This document shows positions 2,289 through 61,425 of a stretch of DNA of 64,000 nucleotides, piece by piece. A program made the translations under genes and the position numbers. The notes under the pieces are model-generated. The model was given only the letters and a program-made list of their open reading frames with translations, searched no databases and was not told the origin of the DNA. The stretch's first letter is position 1. Each line of letters opens with the position of its first letter. The DNA lies in the NCBI GenBank assembly GCA_022790575.1, contig JAAVXM010000025.1:67761-131760 (forward strand). The letters are read 5' to 3'. The stretch is from Clostridia bacterium (GTDB lineage: Bacteria > Bacillota > Clostridia > TANB77 > CAG-508).

Positions 2289-2768
2289 TTAATCTTTTGC
2301 TGGTTCAACAATTTCTAATGTATCTGGTAACATTTTGTCAATAAATACAATTCCTTCTAAATGGTCTAATTCATGGCATATTGCTTGTGCAAGTAAATCT
2401 TTTGCTTTTATTACAATTTTCTTACCGCTTCTATCTAACGCCTCTACTGTTACTTCTTTTGGTCTAATTAATTTTGCATATTTATTTGGAAAACTTAAAC
2501 ATCCTTCTTCAACTTCGTGTTCTCCCTTTATTTTCGTAATTTTAGGGTTTATAAGCACTTTTACCCCTGTACCATCTTCAACATCAATAACTACTACCCT
2601 TTTTAAAACACCTACTTGTACAGCAGATAAACCTACTCCTTTATATTTATACATTGTTTCTATCATGTCATCTATTAATATTTGAATTTTGTCATCTATA
2701 ACATCTACTTCTCTTGATTTCTTTTTTAATATTTCATCTTTTTCTAATCTAATAATACGTGTTGCCAT
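2289..2768 (-). CDS. def: peptide deformylase
   Basis: 159 aa; GVGLSAVQVG, EGCLSFP and HELDHLEG motifs of PDF. Confidence 0.9.
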   Translation of the reverse strand: MATRIIRLEKDEILKKKSREVDVIDDKIQILIDDMIETMYKYKGVGLSAVQVGVLKRVVVIDVEDGTGVKVLINPKITKIKGEHEVEEGCLSFPNKYAKLIRPKEVTVEALDRSGKKIVIKAKDLLAQAICHELDHLEGIVFIDKMLPDTLEIVEPAKD

Positions 2769-2805
2769 GTTTTATTCATTCCTTCCATATCTATAATTTA
2801 GTACT

Positions 2806-5040
2806 CTAACTCATGTTATTGGGATTAACATCAATAGTAACTCTAGTATCTTTGTAGTTGAGTTCATATATCTTCCTTAAACATTCATTGAATATTTCAT
2901 TTACTTCCTTGGTCATATTTCCTTTTATGATAATTCTCCATCTATATCTATTTTGTATTTTGTCTATTGGGGATGGCATTGGTTTTAGAATATAAAATTT
3001 TTTATCTTTAAGTTTAATTTTTAGATAAGTATATACCTTCTCAGATAATGATATTATATCTTTTTCTATTAAACCATTAAATTCCATCAATATTATATCG
3101 CAAAAAGGCGGATATTTCAACTGTTTTCGTAAAGCAATTTCTGTATTATAAAACTTTTCATAATTTTGCTCTTTTGCACTTACTATACTGAAGTTATCTG
3201 GATTGTATGTTTGAATAATAACTTGTCCTGGCAACTTCTCTCTACCAGCTCTTCCCGCAACTTGTGTTAATATCTGAAATGTTCTTTCATTTGCTCTATA
3301 ATCATCTATGTTTAAACTACTATCTGCAGCAATTACACCAACAAGTGTTACATTTGGAAAATGATGCCCTTTAACAACCATTTGTGTTCCTATTAATATA
3401 TCTATATTTTCATTTTTAAATTTATTTAATATCTCTTCATGTGAGTTCTTTTTAGTTACTGTATCTATATCCATTCTAATTGTTGTTGCTTTTGGAAAAA
3501 TAGACTCTATCTCTTGTTCTAGTTTTTGAGTTCCTGTACCAAAATATCTTATCTTAGTACTTTTACATTCTGGACAAGTATTTACAACTTTTTGCTCATA
3601 TCCACAATAATGGCATTTTAATTTATTTCCTGTTATGTGATATGTCATACTTATATTGCAGTTTTTACATTTAACAGTATAGCCACACTCTCTACACATC
3701 ACAAATGTAGAAAATCCTCTTCTGTTTAAAAATAATATTGTTTGCCTGCCTTCTTTTAAATTGTTTTCTATTGCCTCATGCAATTCAACACTTAACATTG
3801 ATTTGTTCCCATTTGCTAATTCCATCTTTAAGTCTACTATATTGACAGATGGTAAATTAGAATTGTTTGCTCTTCTAGTTAATTCCAATAATGTTATTAT
3901 TCCCTGTTTTGCTTTATAATATGTATTCATATCAGGTGTAGCACTTCCTAATACAAGTGGACATCTATTCTCTTCTGCTATCTTTTTTGCAATTTCTTTT
4001 GCATCATATTTAGGTATTGCCTCTGACTTATATGAACTATCATGTTCTTCATCTATTATTATTATACCTATATTTTGAGTTGGTGCAAATATTGCAGACC
4101 TTGCTCCAATAATAATTTTAGCTTTTCCTTCTTTTATTTTATTCCATTCGTCATATCTCTCTCCAATTGATAATTTACTATGTAATATAGCTATTTCTTC
4201 TTTATTAAATCTTGCAATAAACCTATCTATCATTTGAGGTGTTAAAGATATCTCTGGAACAAGTACTATTGCTGTTCTTTCCATTTTTAGAGCTTCACCA
4301 ATTAATTGTAAATATACTTCTGTCTTTCCTGAACCTGTTACTCCATATAACAAAAATTCTTCAAAGGTATTTGAATTAATTTTGGCTTGTACTTTATTAA
4401 ATGCACATTGTTGTTCATCTGTTAATTGTAAATTCTCTGTACTTTCTATGTTTTTATCTGCTAATGGATTTCTTTCTATTTTTTTCTCCATTATTTCTAC
4501 ATAATTATTTTTTTCTAGGGTTTTTACTATTGCTCTCGTTCCATCAGTAAATAGTTCAATTTCAGGAATAGTTGCTCCTTCTGTACTATTTAAAAATTGA
4601 AGTATTCTCTTTTGCTTATCTGATTTTATCTTGCCTGTATCTATATCAAATTGGATTTTTTCAAAATCTTGTTTTAAATATACAACATTTATTATTTTTT
4701 CTTGTATATTTTTTGCTTTATTGTGGTTTTTTGTACCTGGTTGTAACATCTGTTTAATACAATCAGAGGTATTGCAAAAATATTTTTTTGCCATCCATTG
4801 TGATAACTTTATTTGACTCTCTGTTAAATTATACTTTATTTCTACTATGTCTTTCACTTTATATGAAGTATCATCTTTAATTTTGGTTATATATCCTTCT
4901 TCTAATTTACTTCCTTTTCCAAATGGAACAAGTACAGTAGAGCCTATTGTTACTAAACTCTCTAATTGTTTAGGTATTCTATAATCAAATGTTTTATTTA
5001 ATCTTTTTGCTGAACGATTTATTACTACTTCAACATACAT
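2806..5040 (-). CDS. priA: primosomal protein N' (replication restart helicase PriA)
   Basis: 744 aa; Walker A GVTGSGKTEVY, DEEH box, Cys4 zinc-binding cluster CRECGY..CKNCN..CHYCGY..CPECK. Confidence 0.9.
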   Translation of the reverse strand: MYVEVVINRSAKRLNKTFDYRIPKQLESLVTIGSTVLVPFGKGSKLEEGYITKIKDDTSYKVKDIVEIKYNLTESQIKLSQWMAKKYFCNTSDCIKQMLQPGTKNHNKAKNIQEKIINVVYLKQDFEKIQFDIDTGKIKSDKQKRILQFLNSTEGATIPEIELFTDGTRAIVKTLEKNNYVEIMEKKIERNPLADKNIESTENLQLTDEQQCAFNKVQAKINSNTFEEFLLYGVTGSGKTEVYLQLIGEALKMERTAIVLVPEISLTPQMIDRFIARFNKEEIAILHSKLSIGERYDEWNKIKEGKAKIIIGARSAIFAPTQNIGIIIIDEEHDSSYKSEAIPKYDAKEIAKKIAEENRCPLVLGSATPDMNTYYKAKQGIITLLELTRRANNSNLPSVNIVDLKMELANGNKSMLSVELHEAIENNLKEGRQTILFLNRRGFSTFVMCRECGYTVKCKNCNISMTYHITGNKLKCHYCGYEQKVVNTCPECKSTKIRYFGTGTQKLEQEIESIFPKATTIRMDIDTVTKKNSHEEILNKFKNENIDILIGTQMVVKGHHFPNVTLVGVIAADSSLNIDDYRANERTFQILTQVAGRAGREKLPGQVIIQTYNPDNFSIVSAKEQNYEKFYNTEIALRKQLKYPPFCDIILMEFNGLIEKDIISLSEKVYTYLKIKLKDKKFYILKPMPSPIDKIQNRYRWRIIIKGNMTKEVNEIFNECLRKIYELNYKDTRVTIDVNPNNMS

Positions 5041-17905: not shown

Positions 17906-18658
17906 TTAATTGTCAAATTGTACTATTTTTGAGAATTCTTCTGCATTAAGACTTGCTCCTCCTACTAATCCTCCATCAATGTCTGACATTTCGAAAAGAC
18001 TTTTTGCATTTGAGCTTTTTACACTTCCACCATATTGTATTATGATTTTGTCTGATTTGTTCTGCCCATATATTTCTGATATTTTTTTTCTTATTTGCAT
18101 TATGGCTTCATTTGCTTCTTCTTTTGTCGCTGTATTTCCTGTTCCTATAGCCCATATAGGTTCATATGCTATAATGATTTTCTCTAAGCTTTCTTGTTCT
18201 ATTCCTTCTAGTGCTTTTTCTATTTGTTTTGATATGACTTTTTCTGTTATTCCTTGTTCTCTTTGCTCTAAAGTCTCTCCAACACATACTATTGGTTTTA
18301 ATCCAACTTTTAAGGCTTGTTTTACTTTTTTATTAACTATTTCATCTGTTTCAGAAAAATATTGCCTTCTTTCAGAATGTCCAATTATAACATATTCCAC
18401 ACCTATTGATTTTAACATTTGCCCAGAAACTTCCCCTGTATATGCTCCACTTTCTTCCCAATGCATGTTTTGTGCCCCAACTTTTATGTTTGTTCCTTGT
18501 ACATTTAATAATACATAAAATAGGTCTGTATATGGAACACATATAATTACTTCGTTTTTTGTATTTTTTACTAGAGGTGTTAATTTTTCTATAAAGTCAA
18601 TTGCTTCATTTGGAAGCATATTCATTTTCCAGTTTCCTGCAATAACTTTTCTTCTCAT
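17906..18658 (-). CDS. tpiA: triose-phosphate isomerase
   Basis: 250 aa; IIGHSERR and AYEPIWAIGTG motifs. Confidence 0.95.
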   Translation of the reverse strand: MRRKVIAGNWKMNMLPNEAIDFIEKLTPLVKNTKNEVIICVPYTDLFYVLLNVQGTNIKVGAQNMHWEESGAYTGEVSGQMLKSIGVEYVIIGHSERRQYFSETDEIVNKKVKQALKVGLKPIVCVGETLEQREQGITEKVISKQIEKALEGIEQESLEKIIIAYEPIWAIGTGNTATKEEANEAIMQIRKKISEIYGQNKSDKIIIQYGGSVKSSNAKSLFEMSDIDGGLVGGASLNAEEFSKIVQFDN

Positions 18659-18685
18659 GTTTCTTCTCCTTATATTATCTAATCT

Positions 18686-27999: not shown

Positions 28000-29034
28000 T
28001 CATATTCCAGGAGGTGAAGGAGGAGTTATAAGTGCACATGTATATGTAAATTTTATATTTTCATGTATTGGAAGTGATGGTGTTGGTTCATATGGAGACC
28101 AAGTACCACCCTGCGTCGTATACCCAGCATCAGCTGTAATATCAGGTATTTCTCTATCTGCTAAATGTCCTATTCCATTTTCTGATGGTACACCATTTGA
28201 CATTAATGTGACAACTATAGCAACAGTTTTTTCTCCACCAGTAAAACTACCATGTTCTACTGCAATTTCTACAATAACCTGATATTTGTCTGGAATTCCA
28301 TCTGGCATATTTATATTACTTCCTTTACCAATTTCATCTTTACTATAGTATAAAGTTATTGTTTGGTCTTTCCAGTCCATTAAAATTTCATCTTCAGATG
28401 CTGAAAGATATGTATAATTCTTTCCATTATATGCTAAACTAGTTTTGGCATAAGTAGAAGCAGTATATTTTTTTCCACTTTCTACTTCTATATGTTCAGT
28501 TTGTATAGTTTCATTAGTTTCCTCCTCACAATGTAGTATCGTTAATTGAGGTTGTGAAATCTGTTTATATGTAACTTCATTATCTGCTGTGTTTGTATGA
28601 TACCACACTCCATCCATTTCTATACCTCTAGCATAATAAATATGGTGACTTTGTTTGTCTATTATGTATATGTCATCATAATTTTCTTCTAAATTTTCTC
28701 CATTTAATTTTTCATAATCTTTACCATAATTTAATGTAAATCCATCTAGCGCTGCTAAATCTATAATATAATACTCCTGAATATCATTGGGTTGTGGTTC
28801 AAATTTTATATTTGTATATTTATGTGATATTGGTAATGCTCCATACTTTATATAAAATGCATCTATTTCATTTTCTAATACTTCTATATCATTTTGCATC
28901 CATTTATAACTTCTCACTTGAATTCCACTTTTAGAATTGTATATAAGCATCCCTGATATTATAATTAGTATTACTATTCCTATTACTAATGATATCATTG
29001 TCACACCTAATGATTTTTTCATTTTTAATCTCAT
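28000..29034 (-). CDS. hypothetical membrane-anchored protein (start set at ATG of MRLKMKKS; ORF track start 29052 is a TTG inside the repeat element)
   Basis: N-terminal TM helix then ~300-aa extracytoplasmic domain; leader carries repeat element A. Confidence 0.45.
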   Translation of the reverse strand: MRLKMKKSLGVTMISLVIGIVILIIISGMLIYNSKSGIQVRSYKWMQNDIEVLENEIDAFYIKYGALPISHKYTNIKFEPQPNDIQEYYIIDLAALDGFTLNYGKDYEKLNGENLEENYDDIYIIDKQSHHIYYARGIEMDGVWYHTNTADNEVTYKQISQPQLTILHCEEETNETIQTEHIEVESGKKYTASTYAKTSLAYNGKNYTYLSASEDEILMDWKDQTITLYYSKDEIGKGSNINMPDGIPDKYQVIVEIAVEHGSFTGGEKTVAIVVTLMSNGVPSENGIGHLADREIPDITADAGYTTQGGTWSPYEPTPSLPIHENIKFTYTCALITPPSPPGI

Positions 29035-29179
29035 TCCTTTCTCCAGGCACAAATTGGTTCGAAAAGAGTTAAATTTTGGCTAGGAAAACAAGTTTTAAAT
29101 TTATGAATCATACTTATTGTACATTCATTAAATTTAAAATGAAGTTTGACGACGCCAAAATTGTAATTATTTTTCAACC
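29023..29179 (-). repeat. leader repeat element, long form (copy A)
   Basis: Shares 24-nt core (29156..29179) and RBS-proximal block with copies at 41597..41693 and 61029..61090. Confidence 0.7.
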
Positions 29180-29254
29180 TTTTTCCTTCGTTTTTCTCTT
29201 GATACTGTAATTACTTTACACTATAATTGCTATTGTTAGAATCTTATTTATATT

Positions 29255-30377: not shown

Positions 30378-31547
30378 TTAATCATAATCTCTAATACTTA
30401 ATGTTGGATATTCAAATATTTGCCCTCCTTCTGTAAATCTTCCAGAAGGTATATGACTTTTATTAAATGTAGTTAACCCTTTTAAGAAATATTGATATTT
30501 TGACTGCTGTGATTGTTTTCCTCCTCCTATTACAACTGGGTCATCCCATGTTGTGTCAACTGCATACCAGTTTTCATTTAATTTTACATAGTTCCATGCA
30601 TGGCTTTCAGTTTCATTGTTGCTATTTGTTCCTTGCCCTATTACTATAACATTATCTACTTTTAATTCATTCATAAAATATTGAAATGCTTTTGCATAAC
30701 CTTCGCATACAGCCTTTTTATATACCAATGCTCCATACATATCATATATATTGTCTTGTGATATTGTTGTTTCATAATCAATGGTTTCTACTAGATAGTC
30801 ATGTACTAACTTTACTTTTTCATAATCACTTTTTCCATTTGCTTTTGATAATATCTGATTTTTTATTGTTTCTATTTGTAATAATGCTGCATCAACATCA
30901 CTTTTTGATAAAAAACCATCTTGTAAATAATTTGGTTGGTGTCCACTATTAATATATACATTGTATTTTATTCCTGTTATTTTGGTTATCTTTTCAATGT
31001 TTATATACATTTTTGTTGCATCTATATAAAATATGTCTGGATTGTCATATATTAATGCTTCTATAGCTGATTGATATTGTCTTTGTAATTCTTCATCTCC
31101 TCCTGATTCTGATAACAATGATGAAAATGTATTTTTGAATTCTACAGTATATGTTCCTGTTTTTAAGTTTTCTCTATTTTCATATAATTTTGAATATATT
31201 ATTTTTGCTGTTTTGTCTAATTGGTTATATAAGTGCTTATAATTTCCTGCATTTTCTGTTGTCCCATTTCCTGAACTTGTTTCTTTGAATATTATTTCTT
31301 CATAATTATTACTGTCTTCCTTTTCTGTCGTTTTGTATTGTATTGTTGGAATTATTGAGTCTTCTTCAAAGCTTATCTCTATTGTTGATTCTCCCATTAT
31401 TTCACTATATAATACATATCCTGTAATTCCTATTATTCCTATTAATAATATAAGTATTATTAATAATAATATTGTACTTCCTTTATTTCCTTTTTTTATC
31501 TTCATTTTCTCACTTTCCTTTCTCAAGGTTTCTATTTTCTTTTGCAT
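30378..31547 (-). CDS. transglutaminase-like cysteine protease domain protein, membrane-anchored
   Basis: 389 aa; N-terminal TM; Cys-His-Asp triad context CEGYA...HAWNYV...DTTWD. Confidence 0.7.
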   Translation of the reverse strand: MQKKIETLRKESEKMKIKKGNKGSTILLLIILILLIGIIGITGYVLYSEIMGESTIEISFEEDSIIPTIQYKTTEKEDSNNYEEIIFKETSSGNGTTENAGNYKHLYNQLDKTAKIIYSKLYENRENLKTGTYTVEFKNTFSSLLSESGGDEELQRQYQSAIEALIYDNPDIFYIDATKMYINIEKITKITGIKYNVYINSGHQPNYLQDGFLSKSDVDAALLQIETIKNQILSKANGKSDYEKVKLVHDYLVETIDYETTISQDNIYDMYGALVYKKAVCEGYAKAFQYFMNELKVDNVIVIGQGTNSNNETESHAWNYVKLNENWYAVDTTWDDPVVIGGGKQSQQSKYQYFLKGLTTFNKSHIPSGRFTEGGQIFEYPTLSIRDYD

Positions 31548-39520: not shown

Positions 39521-39922
39521 CTAAGGTAATATTTCTACTATTAATTCTAATAAACTTGTTATAATTGGAAGTGACATTGTTATTATAATAACTTTACTCC
39601 CTATTTCTATCTTACTTGCTATTGCTTTTTCTCCTGCGTCTGCACACACACTTACCGCAAACTCAGTTAAAAATGCAATTCCTGTAATCTTTATTAAAAT
39701 ACTTAAAAACTTTTGATTTATATATGTTTTTTCTGATATGGATTGTAATAAATTTATTATTCCTGTTATTTTTTCTAATGATAATGCTAATATCATTACT
39801 CCTGCTATTATAGATGCATATATTGCAAATTCTGGTCTATATTGTTTTAATATTATTATTACTATTAGTGCTATTAAACCAATTCCAACAATTTTTATTA
39901 TTTCTTCCATTTTTAATCTCAT
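39521..39922 (-). CDS. spoIIIAD: stage III sporulation protein AD (alternative start at 39910, MEEII)
   Basis: 133 aa, 4 TM small membrane protein; operon position; shares ATGAGATTAAAAATG start context with gene at 29034. Confidence 0.75.
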   Translation of the reverse strand: MRLKMEEIIKIVGIGLIALIVIIILKQYRPEFAIYASIIAGVMILALSLEKITGIINLLQSISEKTYINQKFLSILIKITGIAFLTEFAVSVCADAGEKAIASKIEIGSKVIIITMSLPIITSLLELIVEILP

Positions 39923-39972
39923 TCCTTCCTAAAGGTACATATCCATTTGGAAAAGGATTGGATATTTCCTAT

Positions 39973-40721: not shown

Positions 40722-41596
40722 TCTGCATCTCCTCTTTTCTTTGGATTTAAAATAATTATTCTTTCAAAAACATTTTTCTCTAATAGCCTAGCAAGTTCTA
40801 CATTTTTGTTTAGCTCTTCTATATCTTTTCCATGTGCTGTGAATATTCCTTTTACACCTGAACACATTGCATAATCTATCGCTTTTACATCTTCTATACT
40901 TCCTATTTCATCACATGCTATAATATCTGGCGCCATTGACCTTACTAACATTCTCATTGCCTCTGGTTTTGGCATATTGTCTATTACATCTGTTCTTATT
41001 CCTATATCATTTTGTGGTATTCCTTTATACATTGCTGCAATTTCTCCTCTTTCATCTACTACTCCTATAGTTCTACCAATAAAGTTTAATCTCTCTATTC
41101 CATTACTTATATTTCTTATAATATCTCGCAATAATGTAGTTTTACCACAACCTGGGGGAGATATTATTATTGTATTATGTATGGTGTTTTCTTTTTCATC
41201 TATAATTTCTTCTATTATCTTATTACTACAACCTATTTTCTGTCTCGCTATTCTAATGTTTAAACTTGAAATATAATTTACATTTATAATTTTCCCATCG
41301 TCTATAACCGCACTTCCAACAATTCCTACTCTATTTCCTCCTCTAATTGTTATATATCCATCACAAATCTGCCTTCTATATGAATATACTGAATTCTCAC
41401 ATACCTTTTCAAATGTTTGTAATACTTCCTGCTGACTTACAATATAATCTATTATGCTTGTCCTTGAACCAATCTTCATACATAATTGTTTATTACTTCT
41501 TAATCTTATTTCTTCTATTCCATCTTCTAGATTTTCTTCTATTATTTTATGTAATTGTCTTGGCATATAGTTTAATACTATATTTATTTCTTCCAT
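40694..41596 (-). CDS. spoIIIAA: stage III sporulation protein AA (secretion-type ATPase)
   Basis: 300 aa; Walker A SPPGCGKTTLLRDI, AAA+/T2SS-E-like. Confidence 0.85.
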   Translation of the reverse strand: MEEINIVLNYMPRQLHKIIEENLEDGIEEIRLRSNKQLCMKIGSRTSIIDYIVSQQEVLQTFEKVCENSVYSYRRQICDGYITIRGGNRVGIVGSAVIDDGKIINVNYISSLNIRIARQKIGCSNKIIEEIIDEKENTIHNTIIISPPGCGKTTLLRDIIRNISNGIERLNFIGRTIGVVDERGEIAAMYKGIPQNDIGIRTDVIDNMPKPEAMRMLVRSMAPDIIACDEIGSIEDVKAIDYAMCSGVKGIFTAHGKDIEELNKNVELARLLEKNVFERIIILNPKKRGDAECMYLNSYC

Positions 41597-41693
41597 TTTT
41601 AATCACATTCCCTTCTCAAGGCACAAGTTGGTTGGAAAAAATTAAATTTAAAATAAAGTTTGACTACACCAAAATTGTAATTATTTTTCAACC
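41597..41693 (-). repeat. leader repeat element, medium form (copy B) abutting spoIIIAA start codon
   Basis: 24-nt core at 41670..41693 identical to copies A and C; shared RBS-proximal block. Confidence 0.7.
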
Positions 41694-60479: not shown

Positions 60480-61028
60480 TTATACCCATATAATAAGGAT
60501 AAGTAAAACAATTCCAAAAATAATAAATGAATATCCTAGTATCTTTGTTGTTTTTCTGAATGATTTTTCATTCTTAGGTCTTGGATGAAAAAATTCTTTT
60601 CCTATTTCATAACTCATTTTAGGAAAGTAATTTCCTATTATTATAAATAGTATTCCCAAAATTAAACATGTACTTTTTCCAACATAAACTGTGCTCCCTA
60701 GTGGTACTTCTATCATAATTATATATAATAATACTGTCACAACTGGAATAAACCATTCCATTATTTTCATAATTTTAGGTTTTTCTTTGTTTTCTATCTT
60801 GTTTTTTCTATTTGTAAAAAATATACAAATCCCCTGTATAACTGCCATAATAATGGGTATTCCAAACAATGCAAAATTCTTCGGTGCATAATTGTCCACC
60901 TCATTTGTTATTGTAAAATGTATTGGCATTTGTTCTGGTAGTTTATCATATAATATTACACCCAATATAATTGGAAATAAACATACCATTACACTTAAAA
61001 TAAGTTTTCTTTTACTTTCTTTTTCCAT
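60480..61028 (-). CDS. SdpI/YhfL-family (DUF1648) membrane protein, putative immunity/signalling protein
   Basis: 182 aa; YDKLPEQMPIHF DUF1648 motif then 4 TMs; downstream of ArsR/SdpR-like regulator. Confidence 0.55.
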   Translation of the reverse strand: MEKESKRKLILSVMVCLFPIILGVILYDKLPEQMPIHFTITNEVDNYAPKNFALFGIPIIMAVIQGICIFFTNRKNKIENKEKPKIMKIMEWFIPVVTVLLYIIMIEVPLGSTVYVGKSTCLILGILFIIIGNYFPKMSYEIGKEFFHPRPKNEKSFRKTTKILGYSFIIFGIVLLILIIWV

Positions 61029-61090
61029 TTTTAATCATCTTCCTTTCTATAGGCACAAATTGGTTGCAAAATTGTAATTATTTTTCAACC
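61029..61090 (-). repeat. leader repeat element, short form (copy C); core overlaps arsR stop codon
   Basis: 24-nt core 61067..61090 identical to copies A and B; encodes last codons (VEK*) of ArsR. Confidence 0.7.
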
Positions 61091-61425
61091 TTATTACCCC
61101 CCAATTTATAAATCCATACTAAGACATCTTCAAATACAGAACTATTTAATTCATAAAATATAAAGTTCTTTTGCTTGGTTTCTGTTATCAAATTTGCTCT
61201 TTTTAGATGTGATAAATGATAAGATACTGTCGCTCCTGTTAAATTAAAACTACTCGATATCTCCCCTGCAGTTTTTCTTCCATCTTTCAGAAGTTCTAGT
61301 ATTTCTCTTCTAACAGGGTCACTAATTGCTTTTAATGTTTCTGACATTCCCATTATCTTCACCTCTCTCAATCTATTTTGATATATATCTAAATAGATTG
61401 TACTATTTTGAATCACTGCTGTCAA
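61078..61425 (-). CDS. ArsR/SmtB (SdpR-like) family transcriptional regulator (true start possibly internal at 61353)
   Basis: HTH ...ISDPVRREILELL...LTGATVSYHLSHLKRANLI. Confidence 0.8.
   Translation of the reverse strand: MTAVIQNSTIYLDIYQNRLREVKIMGMSETLKAISDPVRREILELLKDGRKTAGEISSSFNLTGATVSYHLSHLKRANLITETKQKNFIFYELNSSVFEDVLVWIYKLGGNKVEK

Follow-up and report, generated by a model that had tools for sequence, protein, structure and literature searches.

The window, the whole stretch of 64,000 nucleotides (nt) analysed here, comes from a Clostridia bacterium (GenBank assembly GCA_022790575.1, contig JAAVXM010000025.1, positions 67,761 to 131,760) and has a G+C content of 28%. It houses spoIIIAA, a spoIIIAD-like gene, a DUF1648/SdpI-like gene and a gene (28000-29022) without a Pfam match; directly in front of the start codon of each lies a copy of a repeated element, the subject of this account. 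A sequence-only reading of the window had drawn attention to a 24-mer, GGTTGAAAAATAATTACAATTTTG, in the leaders of three of these genes. It occurs exactly three times, always on the minus strand, and the claim that this is beyond chance was upheld: 100 shuffles gave no match, even with up to three mismatches allowed. The same reading had described a block SAACCAAYTTGTGCCT in all three copies, an internal module common to copies A and B, copy lengths of 157, 97 and 62 nt for A, B and C (first G to the base preceding the ATG), an ATG-TGA start-stop in copy B and a short out-of-frame open reading frame (ORF) in copy C, all of which were found as described. Copies A, B and C each finish ...GATTAAAA-ATG.

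The 24-mers form the 5′ ends of a hairpin repeat of about 160 nt, high in copy number and not described before, in uncultured gut Clostridia. When one genome per species was scanned, the exact 24-mer was present, among the matches listed, in at least 120 stretches of DNA from 77 species-level assemblies; the retrieved stretches are given L numbers below where they need to be told apart. The 24-mer is therefore not confined to its three places in the window, which the sequence-only reading had named as a finding that would speak against a repeat family, and its proposal of a dispersed family whose ends are conserved, one belonging among small, non-autonomous mobile elements, stands. The carriers are metagenome-assembled genomes (MAGs) labelled uncultured Clostridia, Clostridium sp. 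or Clostridiales, from the guts of humans, rabbits, chickens and ruminants. With a profile made from full-length relatives, about 224 copies were detected in 0.96 Mb of carrier DNA. Rfam gave no match to the whole window at gathering score and noise alone (E≥1) to the canonical copy at permissive E-values, and a literature search matched the arm sequences in no paper.

The canonical element consists of an imperfect palindrome of about 125 nt followed by a tail of about 33 nt. The palindrome is bounded by nearly invariant terminal arms of 25 nt (5′ GGTTGAAAAATAATTACAATTTTGGC ... 3′ GCCAAAATTTAATTCTTTTCCAACC), paired at 22 of 25 positions, and the 3′ arm was identical in 40 of 40 copies from a search that had fixed the 5′ arm alone. 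Between the arms lies one of two alternative interiors, type 1 (...CATTTGAAATTTAATCAACGTACAAAAAGTACGCCTCATAAATTTCAAA...) or type 2 (...CATTTAAAACGCGGTTACATACACCACGTATGCGCCCTTGCCTTTTAAATAA...). The tail, AGATTTGTGCCTTAAGAAAGGAATGnGATTAAAA, extends to the ATG of the gene and contains its own Shine-Dalgarno (SD) sequence, AGGAA, at a fixed 15 nt from that ATG; since this conserved tail lies outside the 3′ arm, the inverted repeats are not strictly terminal. At about 160 nt, multi-copy and without a conserved ORF, the element is small and non-coding in the manner of a MITE (miniature inverted-repeat transposable element).

The window contains four copies in all (Table 1): A has the full length, B and C have arisen by internal deletion, and D, newly found, is truncated at its 5′ end. 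The 3′ arm of copy A carries two substitutions and ends in GAACC. In copy B, in front of spoIIIAA (SpoIIIAA by Pfam), the 5′ arm and the tail are retained, with the first 27 nt or so of the interior and the end of the 3′ arm (…TTTTTCCAACC) between them, and deletions of its type, between AAATTTAAT direct repeats, recur at other loci. Copy C is reduced to the 24-mer, CAACC and the tail, while copy D, directly before the spoIIIAD-like gene, comprises a remnant of the 3′ arm end (TCCTTTTCCAAA) and the tail GGATATGTACCTTTAGGAAGGAATGAGATTAAAA. The additive architecture of the sequence-only reading, with 0, 1 or 2+ modules between fixed ends, has accordingly to be given up, the short forms B and C being derived from the full-length element by internal deletion.

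Table 1. Copies of the element and associated features in the window (window coordinates), with remnants at related loci
Feature	Position	Strand	Remarks
Copy A, essentially full-length type-1 element	29023..29179	-	profile E=2.5e-45
Copy A, rod hairpin	29056-29179	-	
Copy A, tail	29023-29055	-	
Copy A, 5′ arm 24-mer	29156-29179	-	
Copy A, block SAACCAAYTTGTGCCT	29045-29060		
Copy A, module in common with copy B	29130-29156		
Copy A, in-frame ATG in tail	29032-29034	-	
Copy A, purine-rich native SD-like GAAGGA	29184..29189	-	7 nt upstream of the element's TTG
Gene 28000-29022 (no Pfam match), start codon	29020..29022	-	assigned by family geometry: 15 nt after GGAATG
Copy B, internally deleted	41597..41693	-	breakpoint at AAATTTAAT direct repeat
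Copy B, 5′ arm 24-mer	41670-41693	-	
Copy B, block SAACCAAYTTGTGCCT	41619-41634		
Copy B, module in common with copy A	41644-41670		
Copy B, native SD GAGGAGGAA	41694-41702		
spoIIIAA, ATG	41594-41596		preceded by copy B
Copy C, 5′ arm 24-mer + CAACC + tail alone	61029..61090	-	
Copy C, 5′ arm 24-mer	61067-61090	-	
Copy C, block SAACCAAYTTGTGCCT	61051-61066		
DUF1648/SdpI-like gene, ATG	61026-61028		preceded by copy C
ArsR-family ORF upstream of copy C	61078-61425		stop TAA within 5′ arm (61078-61080)
Copy D, newly found, 5′-truncated	~39911..39958	-	profile E=6e-8
Copy D, in-frame ATG in tail	39920-39922	-	
spoIIIAD-like gene, ATG	39908-39910		preceded by copy D
Empty-site example, tpiA start (ORF 17906-18658)	18659..18685	-	plain AAGGAG-aagaaac-ATG
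Possible fifth copy, weak solo-tail remnant CCTTGAGAAAGGAAAGTGAGAAA then ATG	31506..31530	-	E=0.01, weak evidence
Tail-only remnants			L131 gTTTTGTGCCTTAAGGAGGGAATGCGGTTAAA-ATG; also L130, L132 group
3′-arm end + tail remnants			L126, L153/158, L185-187, window copy D
Internal-deletion remnant			L172

Across the family, the element is found mostly at the starts of genes. Of 129 profile-detected copies, 101 (78%) are immediately upstream of the start of a gene in the same orientation, whereas random positions put to the same test are so placed in 7.9% of cases, so that the random placement which the sequence-only reading had regarded as making a leader role unlikely is not seen; and 73 (57%) closely follow the end of a co-oriented ORF, that is, they are operon-internal. 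Even where two copies run in opposite directions within one locus (L093), each is co-oriented with its gene. Upstream of the element, a stretch of 15 nt is rich in G from -9 to -4 and has A at -2 and -1 (75%), and the distance from the upstream SD-like motif to the element's TTG peaks at 4-7 nt; in ordinary genes the distance from SD to ATG peaks at 6-9 nt. On the other side, the GGAATG of the tail lies 15 nt from the start codon in 45 of 65 copies, and 14-16 nt from it in 58 of them. This is far tighter than natural SD spacing, and means that the 3′ end of the element keeps a constant distance to the start codon. A purine occupies position +4 in 93% of filled genes and in 68% of ordinary genes. 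The downstream genes are unrelated: they encode GuaA (GMP synthase), Fmt, GatA, TpiA, FabD, MetK, XseA, SpoIIIAA, a DUF1648/SdpI-like protein and one product without a Pfam match, and the copies lie scattered among core housekeeping genes at distances of 12-20 kb.

Comparison of orthologous loci shows what the element does to a gene start. In 28 ortholog groups some members are filled and others empty at the start of the gene, the junctions changing from ...AGGAG-spacer-ATG when empty to ...AGGAG-spacer-(GGTTG...GATTAAAA)-ATG when filled. The tpiA gene of the window has a plain, empty start, and its ortholog in L115 carries a full element at that position. At the boundary between def and fmt, the def stop codon overlaps one AGGAG in the filled locus (L113, gaaTAAGGAGttaaa followed by GGTTG...) and in the empty one (L042, gaaTAAAGGAGaaaaatATG) alike, from which it follows that the upstream SD is native and that the element brought a second. 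The element thus sits between the native SD and the start codon, in the orientation of the gene and almost exclusively in translation-initiation regions. The filled and empty junctions and the fixed SD-ATG geometry bear out the earlier proposal that it provides the gene downstream with its ribosome-binding site (RBS) and start-codon context.

The distribution of sequence variants points to amplification within lineages. Interior identity is 0.847 within a genome and 0.692 overall, a difference reached in 0 of 2000 permutations, and the nearest neighbour of a copy lies in the same genome 15 times, against 1.3 expected. Genome-specific variants include compensated changes in the stem. Serial insertion is evident in L106, where a fresh copy stands behind the degenerate 5′ arm and SD of an older one, with further cases in L004 and L068; nested insertion is seen on comparing L029 with L013.

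The palindrome is maintained as a structure. As RNA, the canonical copy folds into a rod of about 125 nt (-33.6 kcal/mol, z = -8.1), after which the tail is unpaired, and the GGTTG/CAACC stem recognised by the sequence-only reading is real, forming the base of this long terminal hairpin. The consensus of 40 type-1 copies has 41 base pairs. All four Watson-Crick types are found at pair 44-85 (GC 28, AU 4, UA 3, CG 1), GC (26) and AU (10) at pair 25-103, and there are double changes at two further pairs. Helices 1-4 are paired in 99-100%, compared with at most 57% when their partners are slid, and covariation exceeds that of all 500 shuffles. Conservation of the arms and compensation in the hairpin suggest that what is recognised is a single strand in its folded form. 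A hairpin sequestering the SD of the tail was also considered and was rejected: its outer helix, 64% paired, is unsupported, and its inner CCU/AGG helix, 95% paired, offers only 3-4 base pairs without compensation.

Taken together, these results make it likely that in the 24-mer we have the 5′ terminal arm of a mobile DNA element, MITE-like, non-autonomous and about 160 nt long, which is specialised for translation-initiation regions and tolerated there by virtue of its own RBS. Its spread has taken place within a clade of uncultured Clostridia of the gut with low GC content. On insertion, the rod would part the native SD from the ATG, and the gene would then be translated from the element's own SD in the single-stranded tail, which would make the insertion nearly neutral even inside operons and before essential genes. 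The 5′ end of the element would at the same time set its TTG 4-7 nt after the native SD, so that a short upstream ORF (uORF) is probably translated into the rod. The ordinary explanation of the location at gene starts would be a short asymmetric target (for example A-rich-ATG-purine) combined with purifying selection elsewhere, and this is a candidate.

Several observations weigh against a mobile element of this kind. In genomes of 90% identity or more the copies occupy the same sites, and no presence/absence polymorphism was found between such genomes; the filled/empty differences occur at 72-85% flank identity, and it is from comparisons at this level that we infer mobility. The indels seen between loci of 90-97% identity involve other elements, and a metagenome scan yielded no same-species contigs. 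Gene conversion rather than transposition could partly explain the similarity of copies within a genome. There is no target-site duplication (TSD): matches of 2-5 nt between the 5′ flank and the sequence before the ATG were not above those in shuffled pairings, and inspection revealed none flanking the hairpin. The search for an autonomous partner was restricted to 120 loci of 8 kb each, and in these no autonomous copy, no recurrent transposase and no pair of arms flanking a gene was found; the element was absent from viral contigs and plasmids, and a peptide search returned 24 small ORFs, none of them fused to a transposase. L007, taken up as a lead to such a partner, proved to be a degraded antisense fragment, and hits to only the 5′ or only the 3′ part of the profile, considered as the ends of a larger element, are deletion remnants. 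A tail beyond the inverted repeat is unusual for a MITE, and with hairpin-only and tail-only copies both present the mobile unit is not cleanly defined. Remnants in front of the same genes (spoIIIAA, spoIIIAD) in distant lineages could reflect old vertical inheritance at these sites and not repeated insertion. Finally, translation from the second SD and use of the TTG are both steps that we infer.

The fate of older copies was followed in 80 orthologous spoIIIA loci from metagenomes (489 kb), of the same G+C content and with 49-77% SpoIIIAA identity. None of these loci contains an intact copy. Some have remnants exactly at the start of spoIIIAA or spoIIIAD (Table 1), and others a plain stop-AGGAGG-ATG. 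The loss of intact copies and the retention of tails at these loci imply that the host can do without the hairpin, which disappears over time, the tail persisting because it has become the RBS of the gene. Old copies decay by deletion between internal direct repeats, so that the rod is lost and the tail stays, and window copies B, C and D are in this decayed state. The spoIIIAD-like ORF of L039 (1046-1069, minus strand) and L045 (4662-4685, plus strand) starts at the element's TTG (MKNNYNFDKDVVTIDIVKIIG…); the ancestral ATG position now reads ATA, and the element has donated the start codon and seven N-terminal residues.

Four other explanations of the repeat were weighed. That it is chance, low-complexity sequence or an assembly artefact is a negligible prospect: the sequence is admittedly AT-rich, but shuffles predict zero matches, copies number in the hundreds in independent assemblies of human, rabbit, chicken and ruminant origin, and related species have orthologous copies in common. 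Hardly more credible is a dispersed cassette of promoter, RBS and ATG resembling the Neisseria repeat REP2, which would place genes, for instance those of sporulation, under common transcriptional control. Its location directly upstream of ORFs, to which it gives RBS and start context as REP2 does (PMC3184786), and the presence of two window copies within the spoIIIA operon both fit such a cassette. A scan of the canonical copy, however, found no sense promoter and no terminator, and the TTGAAA...TACAAT hexamers that the sequence-only reading had taken as promoter-like are 6 nt apart and not of sigma-70 type. With 57% of the copies operon-internal, the mobile promoter cassette of that reading is not supported, and neither, given the unrelated housekeeping genes downstream, is its binding site co-regulating sporulation and membrane genes. 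The spoIIIAA copy, moreover, lies downstream of a terminator and a presumed native promoter region, and the long inverted arms are lacking in REP2. A sigma-54 reading was rejected on direct reading of the sequence. The scan also gave two antisense promoter-like hits at chance level. On the antisense strand at about positions 6-34 of the element (e.g. L011:780-807), a perfect -35 TTGACA (from GTTGTCAAAC) is combined with TATTTT after 16 nt; this points out of the 5′ end of the element to the upstream gene, and its score in the scan is at chance level.

The remaining two explanations turn on the TTG and the rod. The uORF from the TTG runs for 9-60 codons, and its sequence, frame and end point are not conserved. 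Of 37 type-1 copies, 18 have its stop at most 25 nt from the start of the gene, and in 7 more it reads into the gene; in type 2 it is stopped early in all 16 copies. In the other two frames the first 13 nt of the element already contain stops (GGT TGA; GTT GAA AAA TAA), so that an upstream ORF entering the element is closed, as happens at copy C to the ArsR-family gene. A conserved unit that is a leader peptide or small protein-coding gene (MKNNYNF...), functional through its product or through its translation, would account for the TTG in SD context, for a frame open over 45-52 codons in many type-1 copies, for the 24 such small ORFs called in public data and for the TTG serving now as SpoIIIAD start in L039 and L045. 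We nevertheless consider it very improbable, because the C-termini of these uORFs of such variable length differ, type-2 copies stop at codon 27, short copies shift frame, the frame agrees with that of the gene in only about a third of copies, and conservation is at the level of nucleotides and base pairs. An in-frame coding insert (RPE-like) was likewise rejected, the frames being random and the uORF length variable.

Somewhat more plausible, yet still unlikely, is a cis-regulatory leader of benefit to the host, in which the mRNA rod, a site for RNase III or a double-stranded-RNA-binding protein, or the TTG uORF sets translation or stability, and for which the element is retained whatever its first mode of spread. 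This would make sense of the compensated 41-bp rod, of the native SD and TTG at initiation distance, of the near-complete pairing of the CCU/AGG helix over the element SD, and of the half or so of type-1 uORFs that stop at most 25 nt from the gene start, as in synthetic bicistronic designs (PMC5995908, 10.1101/2023.02.09.527918). Against it, the downstream genes have no function in common, older copies lack the rod and keep the tail alone, sister lineages have no intact copies at the same genes, the stop is near the start in 0 of 16 type-2 copies, and the outer tail helix is paired in only 64%. Bicistronic coupling as a conserved design can be dismissed on the same uORF counts; and since the geometry is not conserved across the subfamilies, the coupling or control by uORF or start-stop at which the sequence-only reading had hinted is not supported. 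Translational coupling may help some copies, but it is not a property of the family. Looping by which the rod would bring the native SD to the ATG (a split RBS) was rejected on geometry, as about 35 nt would remain.

The strand on which the rod folds best also bears on the leader. Over 82 copies its reverse complement has a mean energy of -45.4 kcal/mol against -33.9 for the mRNA sense, with the sense better in only 2, and in both interior subfamilies the complement has an advantage of 12-16 kcal/mol with RNA parameters (consensus values, complement against sense: -47.5 and -33.6 for type 1, -46.5 and -30.2 for type 2). As DNA, the corresponding values are -27.6 and -23.9 (type 1) and -28.9 and -18.9 (type 2). 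The complement folds better because A·C mismatches of the sense consensus turn into G·U or G·T pairs in it. The asymmetry rests on about 5-6 independent positions, against one sense G·U; in the type-1 consensus these are pairs 6-119, 40-88, 55-73 and 56-72, and in the window the rod concerned is that of copy A. Private mutations show no bias, and given that and the small number of independent positions the asymmetry is suggestive at most. To that extent it argues against a rod optimised as sense RNA and is consistent with a single-stranded DNA substrate on the non-coding strand, or with selection softening mRNA structure. The conserved shared leader RNA of the sequence-only reading finds no favour here, with old copies keeping the tail alone and the hairpin folding better on the complement of the mRNA.

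If the MITE-like element that we prefer is set beside known systems, its closest functional precedent is REP2 of Neisseria, with IR-A and IR-B of Borrelia, and in architecture it is similar to MITEs of the Correia/RUP/ERIC type. REP2 lies immediately upstream of ORFs and gives RBS and start context (PMC3184786); like the element, REP2 and the similar IR-A/IR-B are dispersed repeats before ORFs, 120-150 bp long in their case, with RBS, initiation-codon context and internal stem-loops. REP2, however, has a promoter, two small internal stem-loops and no terminal inverted repeats, and its 25 or so copies serve a co-regulated virulence set. The present element, to which REP2 has no sequence similarity, lacks a promoter, closes a single 125-nt rod (41 bp) with 25-nt inverted arms, is found within operons as frequently as at their heads, leaves the native SD upstream and precedes unrelated housekeeping genes in at least 77 species. 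Like Correia/NEMIS, RUP, BOX and ERIC, it is a high-copy, non-coding repeat of 100-200 bp with conserved inverted arms (not strictly terminal here), long stem-loops when co-transcribed, internal-deletion size variants and lineage-specific expansion (PMC2229807). Correia/RUP-type MITEs use TA-like targets with duplications, insert in either orientation and are mostly intergenic or in 3′ regions, whereas the element has no TSD, an orientation fixed by the gene, 78% of its copies at gene starts and a tail outside the inverted repeat. In two reviews of MITEs no family is described between SD and start codon or carrying an RBS.

Elements derived from IS200/IS605, and REP/RAYT systems, move by single-strand, hairpin-dependent HUH transposition; they leave no target duplication, need a hairpin folded on one particular strand and are strictly oriented to a short target. 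The present element also has no TSD, and its compensated hairpin folds better on the complement strand, an asymmetry resting on about 6 independent positions. Those systems have a hairpin at the left end and another at the right, or else short REPs rich in GC, and their insertions lie on the 3′ side of a fixed target of four or five nucleotides. Here a single long rod is closed by the two ends, the 5′ flank shows only AA (75%) after a G-rich SD at variable distance, and orientation follows the genes, even in the opposed copies of L093. No Y1 transposase was found in a very limited search. Integron attC sites were ruled out on direct reading, since the copies are dispersed 12-20 kb apart at housekeeping genes and the RYYYAAC...GTTRRRY cores do not fit. 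Mycobacterial interspersed repetitive units (MIRUs), reportedly described by Supply et al. in 1997, are operon-internal, gene-oriented repeats whose small ORFs overlap flanking stop and start codons, suggesting translational coupling. They are tandem-prone units of 40-100 bp that are not known to form a long hairpin, and the coupling geometry is not conserved in the present family; no sequence relation between the two is known. Synthetic bicistronic designs place a first SD, a short leader ORF with an embedded second SD and a stop beside the gene start, with the aim of rendering translation independent of local structure (PMC5995908; 10.1101/2023.02.09.527918; PMC12548453). They are engineered and about 50 nt long, whereas in the present family a stop near the start is found in about half of type-1 and in no type-2 copies, and both they and MIRUs are conceptual analogues only.

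A number of further features were observed in the course of this work. An optional hairpin module of about 50 nt (…GCATACTGAGGCTGTAACAAGCAGAGCTTTAACAGCCTCAGCA…) is nested at no fewer than three different interior positions in elements of L019, L020, L024, L029, L042, L059, L062, L078 and L101 (e.g. L029:3335-3385). It was not found outside elements in the DNA examined, and is present in L029 and absent from the orthologous copy of L013. Near the base of the rod, just after the 24-mer, TGCGCAGTGGCGAAC replaces TGTCAAAC in a subfamily variant found in L003, L035, L042, L044, L048, L068, L070 and L087, present in L044 and absent from the orthologous copy of L092. A different, GC-richer repeat of about 121 nt, within the inverted repeat AATTGTCTATTTATATTATAA / TTATATAATATAAATAGACAATT, is present in L012 (4857-4978) and absent from the 95-97% identical L055 (5376-5378). 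A cassette of about 600 nt with two small ORFs, bounded by a duplicated stretch of flank, is present in L029 alone (2570-3179; L013 at ~1200); it resembles a toxin-antitoxin pair, the second ORF having CxxC...CxxC motifs.

In the window, the ATG within the tails of copies A and D (GGAATGAGA; Table 1) is in frame, 12 nt upstream of the start predicted by the geometry, so that ORF callers add four codons (ATG AGA TTA AAA ATG; MRLK); in copy B the equivalent ATG is directly followed by TGA. The tail-like RBS listed as a possible fifth copy precedes the second in-frame ATG of ORF 30378-31547 and has a TGnTATAAT-like extended -10 sequence a short way upstream of it; it may be a solo-tail scar. Five Logan contigs that encode the SpoIIIAA of the window (L121-L125) all stop about 30 nt upstream of the spoIIIAA ATG, inside the tail. 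Short-read assemblies will break at the repeat, leaving MAGs of this clade fragmented exactly at gene starts. The repeat also misleads the calling of start codons, through the in-frame ATG of the tail and through TTG fusions.

It is tempting to go one step further and to suggest that the element is directed to start codons as such. Hairpin-dependent and probably single-strand recombination would insert it, in the orientation of the gene, at a constant distance from the start codon. It would have evolved into a translation-neutral parasite, making good the RBS that it displaces, capturing ribosomes of the native SD with its TTG, and forming a hairpin that is strong on the non-mRNA strand and weakened in the mRNA. 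This is a possibility that we would put forward tentatively, and on balance doubt. If it were true, the element would be a counterpart, at translation initiation, of introns and inteins, and a natural generator of new RBSs across the clade. The preferred MITE-like reading, if confirmed, would itself describe a bacterial mobile element at home in the short interval that separates Shine-Dalgarno sequence and start codon, tolerated before essential genes on account of the replacement RBS that it carries, and would point to insertion with start-site precision by a mechanism that may be new. The many insertions would offer a natural experiment on the effects of a 125-nt rod, tandem SDs and uORFs on translation. 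In these gut Clostridia the RBSs of core genes would be replaceable wholesale by selfish DNA, spoIIIAD and spoIIIAA in the window, and several relatives, now depending on the tail of the element.

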